Below, piece after piece: positions 7,668-24,836 of a stretch of 24,836 nucleotides of DNA. Below the pieces are notes generated by a model. It had not been told where the DNA came from, searched no databases, and saw only the letters and a list, made by a program, of their open reading frames with translations. Source of the DNA: a virus (lineage: Duplodnaviria > Caudoviricetes); IMG/VR virus record IMGVR_UViG_3300033067_000125, positions 1-24,836 of that record; one strand, 5' to 3'. Each line of letters begins with the position of its first letter. Positions within the stretch are counted from its first letter, which is position 1. Made by a program: the position numbers and the translations under genes.

Positions 7668-9749
7668 TTATCCTGTCACTTTTGCTTTGAAGGTGCTGAA
7701 ACCTTTTTTGCCGGAGCCTTCTTTGCAGTTGGCTTTTTCGCTGATGGCGTCACCTTCTTCGTTGGTGCCTTCTTTGTAGCTGGCTTTGTCTTTGTCGCTG
7801 AGCTTGGAGTCGCCTTTGTAGGTTGCTGCACCTTGGCCTTTTGGACCTGTGGCTTTTCCAAGCTTACCGGCTCCACCGTCTTGCTTATCGGCTGTGACGT
7901 CGTCTGTGACGTCGACGTAATGCTGGTCAATAAAGTTTGCTTCACCTTCAGAATGAGGTTCCATAATTTCTGCATCATCTTGTTTATCCTTCATGTTTGC
8001 ATGTTTAATTTCTTTAGCGCCCATCTTAACGATTTCTGGTTGCTTTTCTTCATCTAAAACTAAGAAAGATTCATAGTCTGTTGATTCTTTTTTCTGAGCA
8101 GCGTAATAAGCAGCAAGAGCCATTTGCTTACGCTTCTCTGTTGACTTACCAGAGAATTGAGGAGCATCTGATTTAGTAAAATCGGAAATCCATTTTCCTG
8201 CTGATGAGTCTTTTGATAACACTTCATTGATTAGGAGGTCTAATTCTTTTTCATTGAAGAGTTCAAAACCTTCTTTTTTCATGCCATGCGCTTTACCATG
8301 TTCATGAGCTGCACTCATTGCAGCGTTAGGACCACGCTTTTCATAAGCAGACAAATACGCATGAGCACCTTCTTTAGCTTTTGCTGCAGTAGAATAACTC
8401 TTACCACCAGCGTACATTACAGTACCCTTTTCCTTATGCTTTACAATAGGGCGGTGACCACCAAACTGTGATGGTTCTGATGTTGCATGGTAGTCATCTG
8501 CATGAATAGCTTCAGTGATCACTGAATCAAAATCATATTGTGTATCTGCTTTATCATACACATAAACATCGTGGTGTGCTGCGTCTGCTTTGCGAATACG
8601 TTGGTGTGAATGAGCACCTGACTTAGCATTTTGATCTACATTAGTACGTTTTCCATTAGCATAAGTTGCTTTTGGAGCATCCTTAGAATACTTATGAGCA
8701 TTAGGATTGTCTTTGCCTAAACGACCTTGTAAAACAACACGCTTATTAGTACCTTTATGTTGAGCTTTAAGATCTGCTAATTTCTTTTCGGATTCAGCAT
8801 CACCTGGTTTGTGAGTGAATTGGAATGAAGAACTAGTGCGTGCTTGAGCTTCACCGAGCATATCTGAACCGTCATAATATGTACCATCATCAAGTAATTC
8901 TAAGTCAACTGATTCGTTCTTTTTGTCTTTACGCTCTTGAGCTTCATCATCTTTTTGCTTGCCGCCACCATAGCGCACGCCTTGTTTCTTACCAGTGCCA
9001 CCATTAGGTTGAGTAGCGTTCTTGTCTTTAACAGACTTAAGCATGTCATCCCAACCTTCTTCAACTTGCTCAACGGATTCACGTGTTAACTTATTAACTG
9101 CGCGTTTAATTCCTTTATTGCGTTTCTCTTGACCAGCATGAACTTTGTTTTTCATTGGTTCGCCGTAAGGTTTGTGGTCGCTGTTGCTATATGCACTATA
9201 TCCACGATGGAATGCGGTATCAGCTTTGTCATTAGCAGCTTTCTTGATATAGTTACCAAGTGTAGTCTTGCTTAATTCATCTAATTGTTCAAAATCTTCA
9301 GATACCATAAATTCTTGAAGTTCTTCCAAAGAATAGTCTTTAATATCTTCATTCACCGATTCTTTTTTGTAACCGTGAGATGCTAAGTGTTTTTCTAAAG
9401 AATCTTTGTGTTTGAATGCGGCAACAGTAGAACCGTCCTTACGACTATGTCCATATTCTGAACCACCACGCAATGCAGTAATAGTTTCACCAGTTTTTGG
9501 ATGCTTGTATGAACCTTTTTCAAAACCGGTTTTTACTTTTTCAAATCCATGTGCTTTAGCAACTGTGCTAACGGCAGCTTCATCTAATTGTTCAACTTCT
9601 TCTTTGCGAAGAAGTTTAAAGTCATGCTTATCTAGTTTACCATTCTTGTTTTTATCAAGTTTATGTTGATCGCCTTTAAGGCTTTCATCTTTCATCTTCT
9701 TGTAAGATTCAGAGATGCTATCAGTTTTAAAAATACCCCATGTAGTCAT
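7668..9749 (-). CDS. Modular putative internal head polyprotein (693 aa)
   Basis: AAGGA RBS; EF-hand-like loop DKNKNGKLDKHD; basic or His-rich modules separated by acidic linkers ending LDE, VNE, VEE, LGE, ITE, INE. One module is homologous to ORF 15117-15428. Confidence 0.72.
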   Translation of the reverse strand: MTTWGIFKTDSISESYKKMKDESLKGDQHKLDKNKNGKLDKHDFKLLRKEEVEQLDEAAVSTVAKAHGFEKVKTGFEKGSYKHPKTGETITALRGGSEYGHSRKDGSTVAAFKHKDSLEKHLASHGYKKESVNEDIKDYSLEELQEFMVSEDFEQLDELSKTTLGNYIKKAANDKADTAFHRGYSAYSNSDHKPYGEPMKNKVHAGQEKRNKGIKRAVNKLTRESVEQVEEGWDDMLKSVKDKNATQPNGGTGKKQGVRYGGGKQKDDEAQERKDKKNESVDLELLDDGTYYDGSDMLGEAQARTSSSFQFTHKPGDAESEKKLADLKAQHKGTNKRVVLQGRLGKDNPNAHKYSKDAPKATYANGKRTNVDQNAKSGAHSHQRIRKADAAHHDVYVYDKADTQYDFDSVITEAIHADDYHATSEPSQFGGHRPIVKHKEKGTVMYAGGKSYSTAAKAKEGAHAYLSAYEKRGPNAAMSAAHEHGKAHGMKKEGFELFNEKELDLLINEVLSKDSSAGKWISDFTKSDAPQFSGKSTEKRKQMALAAYYAAQKKESTDYESFLVLDEEKQPEIVKMGAKEIKHANMKDKQDDAEIMEPHSEGEANFIDQHYVDVTDDVTADKQDGGAGKLGKATGPKGQGAATYKGDSKLSDKDKASYKEGTNEEGDAISEKANCKEGSGKKGFSTFKAKVTG
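7676..7978 (-). CDS. Overprinted Lys/Ala/Pro/Thr-rich (histone H1-tail-like) protein, 100 aa
   Basis: Alternate frame inside the 3' end of the 693-aa gene; AAGGA 8 nt upstream of ATG; amphipathic N-terminus MMQKLWNLILKVKQ; repeated ATKK/PTKK/SAKK/TAKK/PAKK; 22 Lys versus 2 acidic residues. Confidence 0.65.
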   Translation of the reverse strand: MMQKLWNLILKVKQTLLTSITSTSQTTSQPISKTVEPVSLEKPQVQKAKVQQPTKATPSSATKTKPATKKAPTKKVTPSAKKPTAKKAPAKKVSAPSKQK

Positions 9750-15908: not shown

Positions 15909-16877
15909 TTACTTATTGAAGTAACTTGAATTTTGTAACCAAAAGTAATACTTTTCAAAACCTTCTTGAACGTCTACTTTTGGATCATACCCAAAGTCAC
16001 GACGAGCTGCTGTAATATCTAATGCACCACGACTTGGAAAATCTGCATCTTTATCACGAACTTCAATGTTGCCTTTGCCGGCAAGTTTCACAGCCATTTC
16101 AGCAGCGTCATATAAACTTACACTATGACTTTTAGTAATGTTATAAGTTTTGTTCTTAGTGTTCTCACTTAGTGTAGCAGCAACAATACCATCTGCTGCG
16201 TCTTCAACATATGTGAAGTCTAGAACTTCTTTAATGCCATTAACCTTTAGTGTTCCACCACGCATTGCTGTTAGTAAGAACTTAGAGATGACTCTGTCTT
16301 CAACGTCGAATTCACCATAGACTGCACTGGGACGTATAATAGTGTAACTAAAAGCGTTACGACGAGCATAATCTTTAACAAGCCATTCTCCTGCAAGTTT
16401 CATAATTCCATACTGACCTTCTGGATAGCATGGTTCATCTTCTCTAATGCAATGTGTAAATTCGCCATATACCATAGATGAACTAATATACAAAAACTTT
16501 TTAACTTTAAATTCTTGCGATAGTTCACATAGGTTCAATAAACCTTCTGACATAGTTTTTGAACCAAGTTGAGGATTAGCATTAACAACCTTTTGACGTG
16601 GAAAACTTGCTAGGTGCATAACGATCTCAGGATTAAAATCCTTGAAGATTGATCGCATTACTTGACGATCTGCAATATCTACTACACGAATGTTCAATGG
16701 ATCACGTGGAGTTTCAATCTTTTGTAAACGCTCATTGAACAAATAGTTCATTTGTTCTTCTGGAATAATTCCATAATTTGTCATGTTATCAACAATCAAC
16801 AAATCATGGTTATCCTTTAAACGCTTTACAACGTTATGACCAATGAGGCCTAAGCCTCCTGTAATCAAGATTCGCAT
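15909..16877 (-). CDS. NAD-dependent NDP-sugar epimerase/dehydratase (extended SDR)
   Basis: ITGGLGLIG, HLAS, SSSMVYG, YGIMK (YxxxK), RPSAVYG, DFTYVED. Confidence 0.92.
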   Translation of the reverse strand: MRILITGGLGLIGHNVVKRLKDNHDLLIVDNMTNYGIIPEEQMNYLFNERLQKIETPRDPLNIRVVDIADRQVMRSIFKDFNPEIVMHLASFPRQKVVNANPQLGSKTMSEGLLNLCELSQEFKVKKFLYISSSMVYGEFTHCIREDEPCYPEGQYGIMKLAGEWLVKDYARRNAFSYTIIRPSAVYGEFDVEDRVISKFLLTAMRGGTLKVNGIKEVLDFTYVEDAADGIVAATLSENTKNKTYNITKSHSVSLYDAAEMAVKLAGKGNIEVRDKDADFPSRGALDITAARRDFGYDPKVDVQEGFEKYYFWLQNSSYFNK

Positions 16878-17560
16878 GTGACCAGTTCCTCAGCCATTGG
16901 GAAAATTTCAGCAATTACTTTAGCACATGCCAATGCTACTTCACGGTGTTCTTTCTGAGTACCATTACCAGCACGCAATTGGATGAAGTGAATCCATGAA
17001 CGAAGTGTACCATTCATATACATGCGTGATACAGTTAAACCTTCAGGTAGAACTGCACGAGCTTGTTCTTTAGCAATCCCATTCGCAATCGCCCATTTGT
17101 ATTCTTTTTCAACTGCAAACAATACACGCTTCTGAGCACGTTCCCATTCAATTGATAATTGACGTTGTGCTTCATCATTCATATCAGCGTCAATTGAGTT
17201 TTGACGATTTTTAGTATCTTGGAATCTAGCTTCACGTATTACGAATGCCTTACTCATCTCTGCAGTTGGATCTGCGTATCGTTGAGAAAACTCTTGGAAG
17301 GAGAATGAACGATGACGTAAGATTTGACGAGCAATATCACGTGTAGTTTCAATCTCAATGCATGCAGAAACCATTTCAAGTGGTGACCAATGTTGGTGCT
17401 TAATTAGATAACGAATAAGTTTATCTGCAGTTCCAGCATTCATTTGGTTAGATGGATTTGATACTCTAGCACAAAATGCGATCAAATCTTGCACATCAGA
17501 AAGACCTTCTGAATAAAATTCACGTGATGGTTTACTATACGATACTAACTTAACTTGCAT
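16865..17560 (-). CDS. thyX: FAD-dependent thymidylate synthase
   Basis: HWSPLEM, RHRSFSFQEFSQRY signature, AKEQARAVLP, TQKEHR; start placed at ATG 17560 (AAGGA RBS). Confidence 0.96.
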   Translation of the reverse strand: MQVKLVSYSKPSREFYSEGLSDVQDLIAFCARVSNPSNQMNAGTADKLIRYLIKHQHWSPLEMVSACIEIETTRDIARQILRHRSFSFQEFSQRYADPTAEMSKAFVIREARFQDTKNRQNSIDADMNDEAQRQLSIEWERAQKRVLFAVEKEYKWAIANGIAKEQARAVLPEGLTVSRMYMNGTLRSWIHFIQLRAGNGTQKEHREVALACAKVIAEIFPMAEELVTCES

Positions 17561-17702
17561 TTTCAATCCTTTTAATTTCTAAAACATCACCTGTTGGTAA
17601 GCTATTTGCAAATGAAATAGCATCCTCATAATTATCAAAATATTTTGTAGTTACACTGCTTTCTAATGAGCTAATATAGTAACACACCTTATACTTCTTC
17701 AT
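17550..17702 (-). CDS. Small hypothetical protein (50 aa)
   Basis: Manual translation MKKYKVCYYISSLESSVTTKYFDNYEDAISFANSLPTGDVLEIKRIENAS; GGAG RBS; overlaps both neighbours. Confidence 0.7.
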   Translation of the reverse strand: MKKYKVCYYISSLESSVTTKYFDNYEDAISFANSLPTGDVLEIKRIENAS

Positions 17703-19798: not shown

Positions 19799-20093
19799 TA
19801 CCTAATTTAAATTTGCCAGTTTCAAGTGAGTCTTCAATAACGTGAGTTAGAACATCACCTAATAAATCCATGAAGTCTACACTACAGTTTAGTTCTTCTT
19901 CATCTAAATGTTCTGGTAAGTCTATCACTTTAAATTGAAAACTTAATAGTGCTTCATCGTCTTTTTCTTTGACTTGAATCTTACCATATTTGTATACAAC
20001 ATCTTTGAATGTACCTTCATTGATTTTTACATGCCACTCGTCATTGACGGTGGCATTTTCAACGAATGAGTACGAATTACTCGTTATCTTCAT
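19755..20093 (-). CDS. Conserved hypothetical protein in the gp40 position (between uvsX and 41)
   Basis: Acidic protein of about 112 aa overlapping both neighbours. Synteny matches T4 gene 40, but sequence homology is not established. Confidence 0.65.
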   Translation of the reverse strand: MKITSNSYSFVENATVNDEWHVKINEGTFKDVVYKYGKIQVKEKDDEALLSFQFKVIDLPEHLDEEELNCSVDFMDLLGDVLTHVIEDSLETGKFKLGNDDKPTDSESTVHE

Positions 20094-21135
20094 CGATGTC
20101 CTCATACTTATCTTGCATCATGGCAGCATGGCCAATTTGGAAGTTATCAGTAATATACTTTTGGAATTCTTGTGAGGCTAGAATGTCTTGCCAGAATTCT
20201 TTATTGAGCGTATCTTTCTCTCGTACCTTTGTACCCACGAGCTCACCTGTACTTCGGTCCACTTTTTGATACCACCCGTTGTTAGGCTTAACAACGAAGT
20301 TACCAGCCAAAGCAATATCAAGCAAACCAGAATACTTCTGAATACCACCATTGAAAGAAACCGAGACAGGAATCTTAGACTTTTCTTTAACATATCGAGA
20401 TTTTTCTACGTTAATGATAAAGTGGTAACCTTTGATCTCTGTGCCATCTTTATCTTGTTGACGACCCAAGATCCAGATCGTATCCGCTGAGTAGTAAATA
20501 CCAGTGCCACCTGAGACAACAGCCTTAGGGAACATACCAATTTCCATGTATGTATGATTCACTACAACCATAGGAACATCCTTCATGGTTAAGTACGGTG
20601 TAATCATACGGAACAAACCTTTTAGTGCTTTAGCACGAGACATATCTGCAACAGATTTCTCATTCAATGCATCTTCCAATTCTTTCTTAGAAGCAAGGTT
20701 ACCAACTGAGTCAATGACGATAATAACTTTTTCGCCACGCTCAAGGTTATTCAATTGACCAACTACGTCAAACTTAAGTTGTTCAACATCGGTGATTGGT
20801 GTATGTAATACTCGTGAGGTATCAATACCGAATGAATCGAAGTAGGCTTGTGGTGTACCGAATTCAGAATCATAAAATAACATAACTGCATCAGGATATT
20901 TGTCCATGTATGCCTTTGCCATTAGCAAAGAGAACGCAGTTTTAAAGTGTTTAGATGGACCAGCCAAGACTGTAAGTCCTGGTGTAAGTCCACCATCAAG
21001 TTTGCCACTCAACGCAACGTTAATCATAGGAACTGATGTGGTAATCATATCCTTTGCGCCAAAGAACTTCGAATCTTCTAACACCGCAGTGTATTCGATT
21101 TTCGAATTCTTTTTTAGTTTATCCATTAAGCCCAT
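20077..21135 (-). CDS. uvsX: UvsX RecA-like recombinase
   Basis: AGPSKHFKT, YDSEFG, IDSVGNLASKKE, DMSRAK, NHTY, SGGTGIYYSAD, EKSRYVKEKS. Confidence 0.97.
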   Translation of the reverse strand: MGLMDKLKKNSKIEYTAVLEDSKFFGAKDMITTSVPMINVALSGKLDGGLTPGLTVLAGPSKHFKTAFSLLMAKAYMDKYPDAVMLFYDSEFGTPQAYFDSFGIDTSRVLHTPITDVEQLKFDVVGQLNNLERGEKVIIVIDSVGNLASKKELEDALNEKSVADMSRAKALKGLFRMITPYLTMKDVPMVVVNHTYMEIGMFPKAVVSGGTGIYYSADTIWILGRQQDKDGTEIKGYHFIINVEKSRYVKEKSKIPVSVSFNGGIQKYSGLLDIALAGNFVVKPNNGWYQKVDRSTGELVGTKVREKDTLNKEFWQDILASQEFQKYITDNFQIGHAAMMQDKYEDIDEDNE

Positions 21136-21159: not shown

Positions 21160-21188
21160 ATTATATCACATTTTATTACAGGAAGAAA
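21160..21188 (-). promoter_or_regulatory. Extended -10 promoter for uvsX
   Basis: Minus strand TGaTATAAT (-10 at 21160-21165), weak -35 (TTTCTT at 17 nt), GGAG RBS; shares TGTGATATAATA with the nrdA promoter. Confidence 0.7.
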
Positions 21189-22381
21189 CCATCTAGTGAA
21201 GCTTTTGGAACTTCAATCATATCTCTGAAGTCCTGAGATTCACTGTGGTTGTATTGTAAAAGAATTCTATCAGTTGCATCGACAGTGTCTCTACGACCTT
21301 CAAGGAATTCTTTAATCTCAAACGCCATGTCTACAGCGGTACCTACTGGCACGTTTTGACAGATGTGGTTCAAGTTTGCTTTAGGGTTCAACAACTCGAA
21401 GTCATGAGGTAATCCCATGATTGTCATTGCTTCCCTATAAGTTATGTATCTGTCTTCATAAGGATGAGTTAACATGGTTGGATAGTGACCAACAAAAGCA
21501 CCAATGTAATTCTTTGGAACAGTGGTCAATCTACGCATGATGTTTTCACCGCGTCCTAGTTTCTCATGAATACGTTTACACCGTGCTTCAATGTTTGGAT
21601 AGTTATTCTCTGCCATCCATTTGCCTACTTCTAGATATGAAACGTTGTTACGTTCTATCCAATCCATCGCGTTATCAGTCTTCTCAATCTTATCGAAAAA
21701 CTCTCGATGTGAGATTCCACCTTCCATTTTCTCAAGAACATAACGATACCAAGGATCAGTTTTTGTTGGAATTTTGTCATTAGTCACAGTGTGTTGAGTT
21801 AAGTTCTGTGGCATATTGCTAATCAGGTCTTCAATTCGTGTCCAAGGTTTCTTGTAGAAGTTAAAGACTGGTGCACGTGTACCACGCCAGAAAAAGTAGA
21901 ATGAACGTTCACGAATTTGCGGAACTCCATGCAACTGAGATTTTGTACGATAAATTGACATAACATAACCATGCTCTTTAGCAATGGCATGAAGTTTCTC
22001 TACAACAGGTTTACCAACCTTGCCTGCAAATCCTGGTGCATTCTCACCCCAGAACACATCTGGTTTCCATGTACCTAAAACTAACTCAGCGGTTTTATAC
22101 ATCCAATCATTTGCTGCTGCATCAGAAGAAGCACCTGCAGATAACGACGACAGACCTGCACATGGGCAAGTCGTCGAGATAACATTTACTTTACTTGGAG
22201 AGTGAGTACCTTTATCCATAACGTAATATGGAAGGTCTCTATAGTGATTCACTGCATGTGAATCATTGGACGCAAAAGCTTCAAAAGAAGCCAGCCATTC
22301 AGGCCGACTTCCCATAGCTTTCTCTTGACCCAATGTCTGTCCACCAATCAATGGGACGATACTTGCATGTTTAATTGTCAT
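21176..22381 (-). CDS. Divergent C5-cytosine methyltransferase-fold enzyme
   Basis: Motif IV CPCAGLS, VI GENAPG, VIII GVPQIRERSF, IX RYITYREAMTIMGLP, X CQNVP; motif I degenerate (IVPLIGG instead of FxGxGG). Confidence 0.8.
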   Translation of the reverse strand: MTIKHASIVPLIGGQTLGQEKAMGSRPEWLASFEAFASNDSHAVNHYRDLPYYVMDKGTHSPSKVNVISTTCPCAGLSSLSAGASSDAAANDWMYKTAELVLGTWKPDVFWGENAPGFAGKVGKPVVEKLHAIAKEHGYVMSIYRTKSQLHGVPQIRERSFYFFWRGTRAPVFNFYKKPWTRIEDLISNMPQNLTQHTVTNDKIPTKTDPWYRYVLEKMEGGISHREFFDKIEKTDNAMDWIERNNVSYLEVGKWMAENNYPNIEARCKRIHEKLGRGENIMRRLTTVPKNYIGAFVGHYPTMLTHPYEDRYITYREAMTIMGLPHDFELLNPKANLNHICQNVPVGTAVDMAFEIKEFLEGRRDTVDATDRILLQYNHSESQDFRDMIEVPKASLDGFFL

Positions 22382-23583
22382 AGTCTTTCTTTAATAAGAG
22401 TCATCATTTCACTGAATGTATGTTCTGCATCTTGGTGTGACTTATAAAATTCATAAGCCATTTCACGATATTCATCACGCATTCCACGGTCTTTAGATAA
22501 TTTATCTAGAATGTCAAATGCTGGTTTCATATCAGTGTCATCAAGCCAAATAGTACCTGTATCTTTACAATCGATAAGCTTCTTACCTTGAGCACGATGT
22601 GTACAACGTTCACCATAAGATTTACGGAATACAGGAACAACACCAACTGCAGCAAGTTCACAATGAGTGTATTCAATTGAACGTTGAATATAACGTTCAT
22701 CTAACAATGATAGTTGATAACCAAATGCAACTCGTGACATGCGTTCAAGCATTTGCTCATTGATATATGGACCAAACACATATGCTGGTTGATTGATGGC
22801 AATAGATGATGTTGAAATATCTTTGTCAATCAAACCATGGAATTCTGACAATTCACGGAACGCAAGATATGCTGGTGATTTTTCAATACCTTCAAATGTA
22901 GTGATATAGCCATTTGGGCGTAGGTATGAATTGTGGAAAGCAAACATTTGTTTGTAACCTTTCCAACTTGTAGTACGACCAATCCACTTATTGTGGAGTT
23001 CATCTTGTTCAGCAATGTCTTTCCAGTACTTAGAACGTACTGATGCAAAGTCAATTCCTGGTTGGAAGTTTAAGATAGTCTTTGAGGTATCATCACCACC
23101 CATGAAAGCATCTAAGCCAGATGAGGTTACCTCTGTAACATACTTAGCAAAATCGTTTGTTGCTGAGTGACCAAATAGAATGTCAGCTTTATTAACAGCT
23201 TCTTCAATACAAGCATTACGCTTAATAGACAATGAAGAATGATCATGTTGAATAAGCACCACTGGCTTTTTGATTTCTTTCAGTGCACGATTAAATTCAG
23301 CAATCGCTGCTTCTGGGTGAGATAACGATGGAAGACTATTAATGATAACAACATCAGACTCATTGCAACCATCAATCATCTTCTGAGTTTCTTCAGGTTT
23401 AGACAACTTTAGTTGAATAACATTAGAAACATCATGAGCATTTTTACGTGTCCATGATTTATCTTTAGATGAAAAGACTGTGAAGTCATATCCATTCTTT
23501 GCAAACCATTTAGTTTGCTCAACAGTAAATTTAGTTACACCGCAGCCTTCAATACCACGACCCATAATGATTGCGATTTTCAT
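22378..23583 (-). CDS. agt: T4 alpha-glucosyltransferase-like DNA hmC glycosyltransferase
   Basis: N-terminus MKIAIIMGRGIEGCGVTKF closely matches recalled T4 AGT; also QHDH, WIGRTTSWKG, EYTHCELAAVGVVPVF; length about 400 aa. Confidence 0.92.
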   Translation of the reverse strand: MKIAIIMGRGIEGCGVTKFTVEQTKWFAKNGYDFTVFSSKDKSWTRKNAHDVSNVIQLKLSKPEETQKMIDGCNESDVVIINSLPSLSHPEAAIAEFNRALKEIKKPVVLIQHDHSSLSIKRNACIEEAVNKADILFGHSATNDFAKYVTEVTSSGLDAFMGGDDTSKTILNFQPGIDFASVRSKYWKDIAEQDELHNKWIGRTTSWKGYKQMFAFHNSYLRPNGYITTFEGIEKSPAYLAFRELSEFHGLIDKDISTSSIAINQPAYVFGPYINEQMLERMSRVAFGYQLSLLDERYIQRSIEYTHCELAAVGVVPVFRKSYGERCTHRAQGKKLIDCKDTGTIWLDDTDMKPAFDILDKLSKDRGMRDEYREMAYEFYKSHQDAEHTFSEMMTLIKERL

Positions 23584-24038
23584 ATCACATATACCTTTAC
23601 ATTTGCTTCACTGAACATCTCAGCAGATTGCAACCATGACTCATGCCAATGAGGTCGCAGATTTAAACATTCTTCTGAGATATAGACTTCACTAATACCT
23701 ACTTGAATGACGCCTTTACAGCATTCACTACAAACAGGTAACCCATAAACAAAAAGCTTAGCGCCGTCTAAAGATATTCCAGAATACGTAGCATTATATA
23801 TGACATTCATTTCTGCATGAACTACATATTTGTACTTTGTTTCTCTATCATTTAGACGTTCTTCAAAATCAAAAATACCACGTGGGAAACCATTAAATCC
23901 CTGTGACAAGATTTGACCTTTAGATCCAACAGCAATTGCACCAATCTTAGTGTTTGGATCTTTAGACCATGACGAAACTTCTTTCGCCATAGACATATAA
24001 CGATTAGCCCACTTATCAGGCGTATTTGTCTTCATCAT
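23580..24038 (-). CDS. dCMP deaminase
   Basis: SKDPNTKIGA, GFNGFPRG, HAEMN, PVCSEC zinc ligands. Confidence 0.92.
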   Translation of the reverse strand: MMKTNTPDKWANRYMSMAKEVSSWSKDPNTKIGAIAVGSKGQILSQGFNGFPRGIFDFEERLNDRETKYKYVVHAEMNVIYNATYSGISLDGAKLFVYGLPVCSECCKGVIQVGISEVYISEECLNLRPHWHESWLQSAEMFSEANVKVYVI

Positions 24039-24720
24039 TAATAGACCATTCTTTTACTAGATCAAAGTGGCGTTCATACACATGAAGACTACCAGCATTC
24101 CAGTGAAGATCACCAAGAGCATATACTGTATTAGACTTACCATTAACTGCTTGGAGTACTTCCTTATGAACATAATGTTGCCATGCAAAATCATTCTTAT
24201 AACCATATACAGCATCATTAGATCTCATGAAAACTGATGCATGCAATCTGCCATCGCGGATGTAGTACTGAGTTGAGTAAGTACACATGAAGTCAGACAT
24301 ACCATCACGCTTATAATCTTCATGCATTGTTGGACGAATGTAAATCATTGTTGCACGACGAGACAATGGTGATGCAACCAACTCATCTACAACTTTTACA
24401 AACTGATGATGATTATCTGCTGAGTAGATACACCAACCATAGTTTGAATTGATGCGACCATACTTATCTGCAACTTGTTTCCAGATTGCAGGTGCACCAC
24501 CAGGAATATCATTCACACATAATGAAAGTGAGCGATACCATTCAAGTTCACGTTTGACATAGTCTTGATTAATAACACCAAAGATTGATTCTTCATCAGC
24601 AATGAAAGATGCATTGATAATTTCAATAGTCTTTTGACCACCTTTATCTGTGACGTACTCATTGCGTTTGAGCATGTCTGCAAATTCAGAACGGATGTCA
24701 TGTACATAATTACGACGCAT
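24016..24720 (-). CDS. 42: dCMP hydroxymethylase (T4 gp42-like, thymidylate synthase fold)
   Basis: KTIEIINASF, RELEWY, INSNYGW, SRRA, GMSDFMCT (catalytic Cys), MRSND, KND (Asp at the cytosine-specificity position), GSLHVYERH; all match recalled T4 gp42. Confidence 0.95.
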   Translation of the reverse strand: MRRNYVHDIRSEFADMLKRNEYVTDKGGQKTIEIINASFIADEESIFGVINQDYVKRELEWYRSLSLCVNDIPGGAPAIWKQVADKYGRINSNYGWCIYSADNHHQFVKVVDELVASPLSRRATMIYIRPTMHEDYKRDGMSDFMCTYSTQYYIRDGRLHASVFMRSNDAVYGYKNDFAWQHYVHKEVLQAVNGKSNTVYALGDLHWNAGSLHVYERHFDLVKEWSINDEDKYA

Positions 24721-24836
24721 TATTTGATTTCCTTTTTATAACGATCATCACATTCTGGGTGCTCCATTTCATGGATCATGAGAATGATTAGTTGTGTAGT
24801 TGCATGAGCAAGGTGTGATTGGCCTGATTCAGGGTC
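24720..24836 (-). CDS. C-terminus of a putative dNTP diphosphohydrolase (DUF5664-like), partial
   Basis: Manual translation DPESGQSHLAHATTQLIILMIHEMEHPECDDRYKKEIK*. DPESGxxHLAHA is the motif I recall for this family; the stop overlaps the gp42 start (TAATG). Confidence 0.65.
   Translation of the reverse strand, partial: DPESGQSHLAHATTQLIILMIHEMEHPECDDRYKKEIK

Follow-up and report, generated by a model that had tools for sequence, protein, structure and literature searches.

Why does a phage gene cassette for making and decorating 5-hydroxymethylcytosine (hmC) also encode a protein with the fold of a cytosine-C5 methyltransferase (MTase)? The locus that raises this question lies in 24,836 nt of DNA (the window) from an uncultured, T4-like tailed phage, in which five minus-strand ORFs at positions 21176..24836 overlap one another in a chain, by 1 nt (TAATG, read from the printed sequence), 23 nt, 4 nt and 4 nt in succession. 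The preliminary description had reported five chained genes, and its ORFs, their position, overlaps and identities were all borne out. The substrate paradox that it had noted, of hmC synthesis beside a C5-MTase fold, also holds. The genes of the cassette and of its context are as follows.

24720..24836, minus strand: 3' end of a dNTP-diphosphohydrolase gene (dATP/dGTP-diphosphohydrolase domain, PF18909), of which the contig end leaves only the last 38 residues (24723-24836)
24016..24720, minus strand: gp42-type dCMP hydroxymethylase, 234 aa, with D143, C146, D169 and D177 and a match to T4 1b49
23580..24038, minus strand: dCMP deaminase, 152 aa (PF00383)
22378..23583, minus strand: DNA alpha-glucosyltransferase (AGT) homologue, 401 aa (PF11440), in a swappable decoration slot
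21176..22381, minus strand: C5-MTase-fold protein (MT), 401 aa (PF00145, 57 bits)
20077..21135, minus strand: uvsX, of a T4-like replication module, as context outside the cassette
16865..17566, minus strand: ThyX, with a putative role in dTMP supply

The hydroxymethylase matches T4 dCMP hydroxymethylase (1b49) at E 3.9e-78, is 55% identical to T4 gp42 and has the same signature under the residue rules for ThyA-family dCMP enzymes (PMC13326640): Asp at E. coli ThyA positions 143 and 177, the catalytic Cys, and D169 rather than Asn. These residues strongly suggest that the gp42 homologue makes hm-dCMP. The 5-hydroxy-dCMP/arabinosyl pathway of RB69 and DLP3 (PMC13326640) shares with the window a ThyA-family enzyme acting on dCMP, followed by glycosylation, but its D169N signature is missing here; D169 is retained in an RSND motif, and a 5-hydroxycytosine route was therefore ruled out. 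ThyX would supply dTMP and so leave the ThyA-family gene free to act on dCMP. The diphosphohydrolase fragment scores 25.6 bits against PF18909 (dGTP_diPhyd_N), slightly below the cut-off of 27, and the related contig L001 holds a complete 104-aa gene that is 95% identical (E 6.8e-29). This domain might belong to a dCTP-removing enzyme, and the fragment was the one candidate found within the 24.8-kb contig for a dCTPase or dNMP kinase serving full substitution. Relatives have other pyrophosphatase-like or kinase genes in this slot instead. The AGT homologue scores 334 bits against PF11440 and is 45.7% identical to T6 AGT. Compared with the T-even glucosyl-hmC pathway (T4 gp56, gp42, gp1, cd, alpha-gt and beta-gt), the window shares the gp42 orthologue, AGT and dCMP deaminase, putatively has the PF18909 protein for gp56, has ThyX for Td and lacks beta-gt, whereas MT is missing from the T-evens.

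The predicted model of MT (pLDDT 90.6) aligns with C5-MTases at Z ~25, has their Rossmann fold and carries motifs I-X in order. Every cytosine-attacking residue is intact (C74, E113, R157 and R159 of the catalytic PC, EN and RxR); across 136 distant representatives, C74 is present in 135 and the other three are each present in all 136. The strongest clue to the role of MT, unmentioned in the preliminary description, is its rebuilt cofactor pocket. The canonical SAM-binding set (FxGxG, acidic motif II and motif X GN) is absent, FxGxG was found in 0 of 137 distinct MT locus proteins, and the SAM-contacting F/G/E/N are V9/L11/S32/Q342 in the window. These replacements are conserved among the distant representatives (L11 in 132/136, S or T at 32 in 130/136, Q342 in 133/136), and P10, F36 and N39 are new invariant residues of the pocket. 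A decaying pseudo-enzyme was ruled out, since catalytic and pocket residues are near-invariant across the 136 representatives; this pattern argues for rebuilding under selection, not decay. An aromatic residue at 33 and an Asp at 56 (97/136) are SAM-side remnants through which MT may still bind an adenosyl ligand, and the phage G copy retains the motif II Glu. M.HhaI, M.HaeIII and DNMT1 (PF00145) have the same fold as MT, the same succession of motifs and the same catalytic Cys and Glu and pair of Arg. Identity is 13-23%, and MT has PLIGG for their FxGxG, Ser for their motif II Glu and QN for their motif X GN.

Non-methyl chemistry on a phage C5-MTase fold has a precedent in CmoX, the carboxymethyltransferase of phage S-B43 (PMC12783734, PDB 8yf3). 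Taking the CmoX cofactor contacts as reference (PMC12783734), F25 maps to V9 of MT, E47 to S32, R350 (HhaI N304) to Q342 and the motif-I G27 to L11. The cofactor of CmoX is changed via the same position that is altered in MT, N304 being Arg in CmoX and Gln in MT. This precedent and the new invariant P10, F36 and N39 would fit a protein that transfers another group and yields a new base, whether a nucleophile replaces the hydroxyl of hmC or a SAM analogue or formaldehyde serves as donor on C. CmoX, in contrast, keeps FAGGGG and Glu47, has an SPPC motif and Arg350 where MT has TCPC and Gln342, and needs CmoA; MT falls outside the definition of CmoX and on a separate branch. No cofactor-making gene accompanies MT across the loci, unlike CmoA with CmoX, no CmoA-like family was found among the neighbour families scanned, and decorating enzymes already occupy the upstream slot. 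We therefore consider a new base unlikely.

The gene neighbourhoods connect MT to hmC synthesis. A D177 ThyA-family gene lay upstream of MT in 68 of the 69 informative loci (those with at least 6.5 kb upstream of MT), a near-total linkage to hmC genes, and the refutation by lack of linkage fails. Among UvsX-anchored contigs, an unbiased sample, MT was present in 12/18 with a D/D/D synthase and in 0/17 without; the linkage exceeds chance in this sample, whose loci share phylogeny and so are not independent. The partner synthase has three origins. The window and Pseudoalteromonas phage XG4 have a gp42-type enzyme, phage G has one of SP10/SPO1 type that carries D143/D177, and the enzyme of TIM5-like phages is ThyA-type and carries C143/D177. 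Cys rather than Asp/Glu at 143 of the S-TIM5 synthase suggests a methyl product by the rule of PMC13326640.

The decorating enzyme upstream of MT is variable: across the 69 loci the slot holds AGT in 36, one of four other families in 29 and nothing recognised in 4. Its occupants have unrelated folds, and a search for a solved structural relative of one family, c35, found none. Since MT follows hmC synthesis whatever decorating enzyme lies upstream, it is tied to hmC and not to glucose. The earlier grouping of MT with AGT was too narrow, and an AGT-specific partner was ruled out by the varying slot occupants. MT is nearly always encoded directly after the decorating gene, as would suit an accessory protein that, by flipping bases or as a chaperone, offers hmC to the decorating enzyme; such a partner, or an MT acting on host DNA, would leave phage bases net unchanged. 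We regard this as very improbable, given the retained catalytic Cys, the unrelated folds of the partner enzymes and the 130 kb between the MT and AGT genes of S-TIM5. Phage clusters of C5-MT, TET and GT genes (Burke 2021 PMC8256090; Pyle bioRxiv 2023.12.21.572611) likewise have a C5-MTase fold beside a DNA glycosyltransferase, but by their descriptions TET makes hmC there from 5mC after replication, whereas MT loci have a dCMP synthase and no TET found. Tet_JBP (PF12851, E 0.1) was found in 0/5 whole genomes, a search that a very divergent dioxygenase could escape, and no TET/JBP dioxygenase was found among the MT-neighbour families scanned. A Burke-type MT+TET route was set aside on the result for the five genomes.

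The C-terminus of the window MT, SLDGFFL, resembles a polymerase tail, and 83 of 99 MT ends fit an L-x-x-F motif, like the related polymerase tail ASLEDFF. A predicted complex of the clamp and MT tail of locus L024 scored 0.43 against 0.02 for the best control; to pass, contacts had to agree at 65% or more and the partner had to reach a pLDDT of 37. Scores at or below 0.60 were obtained for 5/78 pairs of solved structure and for every one of the 4 mismatches, among 180, that passed. Clamp-peptide complexes have solved structures, so the score may reflect structures known to the predictor. The tail and the model hint that MT might bind the sliding clamp.

To our knowledge, enzymes that strip hydroxymethyl directly from hmC are known only among methyltransferases, ordinary C5-MTases included, which do so as a side reaction. 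We tentatively favour, at well short of an even chance, the reading that MT is a replication-coupled editor that removes hydroxymethyl from hmC in set contexts and leaves a mosaic genome. The diphosphohydrolase would clear dCTP, the gp42 homologue, judging from T4 homology and its active-site residues, would make hm-dCMP, and AGT, by homology, would put sugar on hmC. The tail of MT would hold it on the sliding clamp, directly behind the replication fork, where it would flip hmC and Cys74 would add to C6. Without a methyl donor, C5-CH2OH would depart as formaldehyde and C would be restored, in set sequence contexts or where the decorating enzyme left hmC bare. Such methyltransferase-catalysed loss as formaldehyde, without SAM, is described in PMC11347137, and PMC13216743 describes hmC runs left bare by T4 AGT. 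Speculatively, the phage could benefit by losing bare hmC that modification-dependent nucleases recognise. We rank a mosaic genome through editing above a new base.

Two controls whose enzyme is GpC-directed or canonical, S-B43 and Melnitz, are depleted in GpC (0.46 and 0.58), and no such depletion was found in MT carriers (0.93-1.53). The window (0.52, z -8.4) and G001-G003 show strong CpC depletion, and the median rho of CpC is 0.83 in 81 MT loci versus 1.04 in 23 MT-less loci. It is ~1.0 in XG4, S-TIM5, phage G and the MT carriers within the UvsX-anchored set, and CpC depletion was not taken as a target signature because it is confounded by lineage. RC is enriched over YC in S-TIM5, which was set aside as a diagnostic because T4 is likewise GpC-enriched. 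The points counted for an editor were the rebuilt pocket, the linkage to synthases of three origins, the varied decoration, the lack of TET in the five genomes, the described formaldehyde-releasing side reaction, the bare hmC runs left by T4 AGT, the lack of GpC depletion and the polymerase-like tail.

The MT family comprises 2405 clusters at 90% identity and 383 at 50% (E up to 1e-30). Cultured records hold a gp42 relative in 772 cases and MT in 6. Matches in GTDB, at 16 loci, are all in metagenome bins and are probably phage contigs; a scan with the XG4 protein found no viral relatives, and MT relatives in the ESM Atlas are labelled PF00145 only. A eukaryote-like PLIGG/QNVP subclade has fused forms with CXXC or zinc-finger tails, including one member with zf-CXXC, and presumably lacks a dCMP synthase; an ESM Atlas query for the taxa of these forms returned nothing. 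No paper describing the clade was found in a search that covered subscription journals thinly; supplementary data to Burke 2021 and Pyle 2023 may list it.

The cultured carriers cyanophage S-TIM5 (MT gene product gp080), phage G (gp301) and XG4 each have a dCMP-type synthase and a glycosyltransferase-like gene. In S-TIM5, MT is the sole PF00145 gene, a conserved AGT is retained and no dCTPase-type family was found. Its cytosines following purines (RC) are reportedly methylated (Sabehi 2012). The preprint methylome of phage G makes no statement on base identity. The sole PF00145 gene, the RC methylation and the lack of a dCTPase-type family in S-TIM5 would suit an MT that, despite its unusual pocket, is still a SAM-dependent C5-methyltransferase. 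It would methylate leftover C under partial substitution, or re-methylate after hmC stripping, within a short motif, for instance purine-C. The partly retained adenine-side contacts and the eukaryote-like fusions would fit, and M.MpeI turns hmC into mC by strip-and-methylate (PMC11347137). We hold this methylation slightly less likely than the editor: the pocket has three invariant changes, including motif-I Gly to Leu, a fill-in methylase has no evident need of a dCMP-type synthase of three origins, canonical phage C5-MTases exist without dCMP synthase (Melnitz), GpC erosion is absent, and the conserved AGT of S-TIM5 needs a hydroxyl, missing from 5mC. Counted against an editor were the sole PF00145 gene and reported RC methylation of S-TIM5, most simply read as SAM-dependent methylation; its C143 synthase, whose suggested methyl product the editor chemistry could not strip; its lack of a dCTPase-type family; the adenosyl-side remnants and phage G motif II Glu; the T-evens without MT; the eukaryote-like subclade; and a CpC depletion not common to all MT carriers.

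For the family as a whole, we think it possible, though somewhat under an even chance, that MT has given up methylation and now reshapes phage DNA modified before replication, as an enzyme dedicated either to hmC dehydroxymethylation or to group transfer on hmC. Its products would then include what is taken for RC 'methylation' in S-TIM5 and the anomalous DNA of phage G, and one branch, taken up by eukaryote-like chromatin proteins that have CXXC or zinc-finger tails, could erase hmC directly. The three cultured carriers make the question testable. If true, a natural enzyme for hmC stripping or group exchange would be new DNA chemistry; it could serve as a tool in sequencing or editing hmC and would bear on whether DNA can be demethylated directly.

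The window, 24.8 kb long, is part of a T4-like phage genome and carries nrdA/B, thyX, a helicase gene and uvsX. A chain of five overlapping genes claimed in the preliminary description was borne out by minus-strand ORFs, with families assigned as follows.

Cassette features in the window
21176-24836, minus strand: five-gene cassette, ORFs overlapping head to tail; in order, PF18909 diphosphohydrolase (partial), ThyA-family protein, dCMP deaminase, DNA alpha-glucosyltransferase (AGT) and PF00145 protein
21176-22381, minus strand: the PF00145 protein, of C5-methyltransferase fold (MT, 401 aa)

Only the last 38 residues of the diphosphohydrolase are in the window; a related locus, L001, has a complete copy. 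The ThyA-family protein matched T4 dCMP hydroxymethylase (1b49) with an E value of 3.9e-78 and, by sequence, is the T4 gp42 orthologue. According to PMC13326640, D177 (E. coli ThyA numbering) in this family directs the enzyme to dCMP, D/E143 to hydroxymethylation and N169 to hydroxylation. The window synthase has D143, D169 and D177, a signature that predicts hm-dCMP as its product. The AGT is 45.7% identical to T6 AGT. The synthase and AGT belong to an ordinary pathway of T-even type; MT is the unusual part. An NDP-sugar epimerase gene (15909-16877) adjoins thyX, 5.5 kb from the AGT gene, and could provide a sugar other than glucose. A 693-aa ORF at 7668-9749 had no Pfam or PHROG match.

The neighbourhood survey proposed in the preliminary description, for this MTase clade near hmC genes, was performed on viral-contig scans (the best 80 of 190 and the best 80 of 592 relatives) plus 14 TIM5-like loci. 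In this redundant sample, every MT locus that had 6.5 kb or more of upstream sequence also had a ThyA-family gene (66/66), as did 107/146 overall. The residues at 143/169/177 were D/D/D in 93, C/D/D in 12 and other in 2, with D177 in all. A wider recount, also of redundant loci, upheld the linkage: the synthase accompanied MT in 68/69 loci that had 6.5 kb or more of upstream sequence, and the exception (L283) had a partial synthase match of unreadable signature. Against ascertainment bias, 39 loci of at least 9 kb were chosen by anchoring on uvsX. MT occurred with a D/D/D synthase in 12, the synthase alone in 6 and neither in 17 (Fisher p 3e-5, leaving out four loci with MT and <4 kb upstream). 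Cultured records had a gp42 relative in 772 cases versus an MT match in 6. Because of these two sets of counts, we conclude that MT depends on the synthase and that the synthase does not depend on MT.

The slot next upstream of MT was occupied by AGT in 36 loci and by one of four unrelated families in 29; in the other 4 its gene was unrecognised. One slot family, c35, co-occurs with a PLP enzyme (PHROG match), and the proteins travelling with it presumably resemble amino-acid:DNA transferases. Motifs inspected by eye suggest that in L034, L035, L046, L047, L051, L111 and L121 the glycosyltransferase gives way to a pair of transferase-like proteins together with a PLP enzyme and an SGNH-like protein, a set that could possibly serve amino-acid decoration of hmC. 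Other sugar kits (L052-L054, L012, L057, L082) comprise UDP-galactopyranose mutase with an epimerase, or nucleotidyltransferase/kinase/HAD sets. In 20 loci a small UDG-superfamily gene, a candidate hmU glycosylase, lies between the deaminase gene and the slot (e.g. L056 6460-6924).

The predicted MT structure (pLDDT 90.6) matched DNMT1, M.HaeIII and M.HhaI with Z of 24-25 and rmsd of 3-3.5. Cofactor contacts of CmoX, the carboxymethyltransferase of C5-MTase fold from phage S-B43, were taken from PMC12783734 and transferred by alignment. CmoX F25, E47 and R350 (HhaI N304) correspond to MT V9, S32 and Q342, the motif-I glycine G27 corresponds to L11, and F48 is unchanged as F33; D69 has no aligned residue, D56 being the candidate equivalent. 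Among 136 representatives of at least 350 residues, drawn from 149 new ids, the substituted residues were conserved (L11 132/136, S/T32 130/136, Q342 133/136), as were the catalytic residues (C74 135/136; E113, R157 and R159 each 136/136). PL[IVL]GG was found in 135 of 137 distinct locus MT proteins and FxGxG in 0/137. Enzymes that have lost the first glycine of motif I usually bind SAM less well.

A single clade nested within the MT family (support 0.999) unites four long representatives, P0165, P0184, P0195 and P0224 (598-1462 aa), which keep the same motifs. They have low-complexity tails, one with a zf-CXXC match at the cut-off (E 6.6e-7), and sit on 2-5 kb contigs barely exceeding the ORF. 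Other clade members have Cys/His motifs like zinc fingers. We infer a eukaryotic origin for this clade, and a phage-to-eukaryote transfer is possible.

Three cultured phages carry MT. In XG4 (Pseudoalteromonas), a gp42-type synthase gene, sugar genes and MT are consecutive. In the cyanophage S-TIM5, MT is the sole PF00145 gene, a ThyA-type synthase (C143/D177) lies 2.4 kb away, and a separate ThyX is encoded. Its full-length AGT homologue is conserved in 2/5 other TIM5-like records, four of those five being incomplete. S-TIM5 gp076 (L081 4766-5602) and 11 related loci have a D177/C143 ThyA-like protein beside a separate ThyX, annotated merely as thymidylate synthase; this is putatively a dCMP-acting synthase of uncharacterised kind. 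The top viral fold match of MT was phage G gp301 (TM 0.77), which shares CPCSGLS, the bulky motif-I residue and the Gln with the family and retains the motif II Glu. Nearby are genes for two AGTs, a dNMP kinase and a dCMP deaminase; gp319, also in the vicinity, is a synthase of SP10/SPO1 type that has D143/D169/D177. These three loci show that MT is paired with dCMP synthases of three separate origins, in phages whose polymerases differ. Melnitz, a comparison phage with a canonical MTase, has neither synthase nor AGT. The phage G gp301-gp319 region (L149, L159) also holds a nucleotidyltransferase and a HAD protein. It is predicted from gene content to be a previously unrecognised hmC-glycosylation island and may cause the anomalous mobility of the DNA, which a preprint puts down to DNA derivatization, naming no base.

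The tails of 83/99 MTs have an L-x-x-F motif, also present in kin polymerase tails; the MTs of TIM5-like phages, whose replisome is of a different type, have (E/K/Q)PIW at their ends. The predicted complex of the L024 clamp with its own MT tail scored 0.43 versus 0.02 for the best control (contact agreement of at least 65%, partner pLDDT of at least 37), on a scale where 5/78 solved pairs and all 4 passing mismatches of 180 lie at <=0.60 and a pass may reflect memorised clamp-peptide complexes. This model hints that the tail is held on the sliding clamp.

We tentatively favour MT as an hmC editor. With its catalytic residues kept, it could still attack cytosine C6; its donor pocket is rebuilt; it requires a C5-modified dCMP pathway and no particular decoration; and it probably rides the clamp. 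C5-MTases without SAM are reported to free hydroxymethyl as formaldehyde (PMC11347137), and T4 AGT is reported to leave some stretches of hmC undecorated (PMC13216743). For these reasons, MT may strip hydroxymethyl from hmC and produce a C/hmC/glycosyl-hmC mosaic genome. That MT instead makes a new base, for which CmoX is a precedent, is unlikely, and no cofactor gene travels with MT. Tet_JBP was found in none of the five genomes searched, a set without phage G.

Plain methylation by MT is a real but lesser possibility. Its best case is S-TIM5, where cytosines after purines are reportedly methylated. By a codon-junction test, GpC was eroded in S-B43 (0.46), whose GC modification is known, and in Melnitz (0.58) but not in MT carriers (0.93-1.53), which counts mildly against long-standing GpC-specific 5mC. 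CpC/GpG depletion (rho 0.75-0.85) was seen in the window lineage (window 1-24836; contigs G001-G003); it is absent from T4, XG4, S-TIM5 and phage G and is not general among MT carriers. If the S-TIM5 synthase makes hm-dCMP, which its C143 renders doubtful, editing would also explain the context-limited pattern in S-TIM5.

The literature text consulted contained no description of the MT clade. The cassette is real and conserved, a variant form of hmC hypermodification, and there is a fair chance that its chemistry is new.
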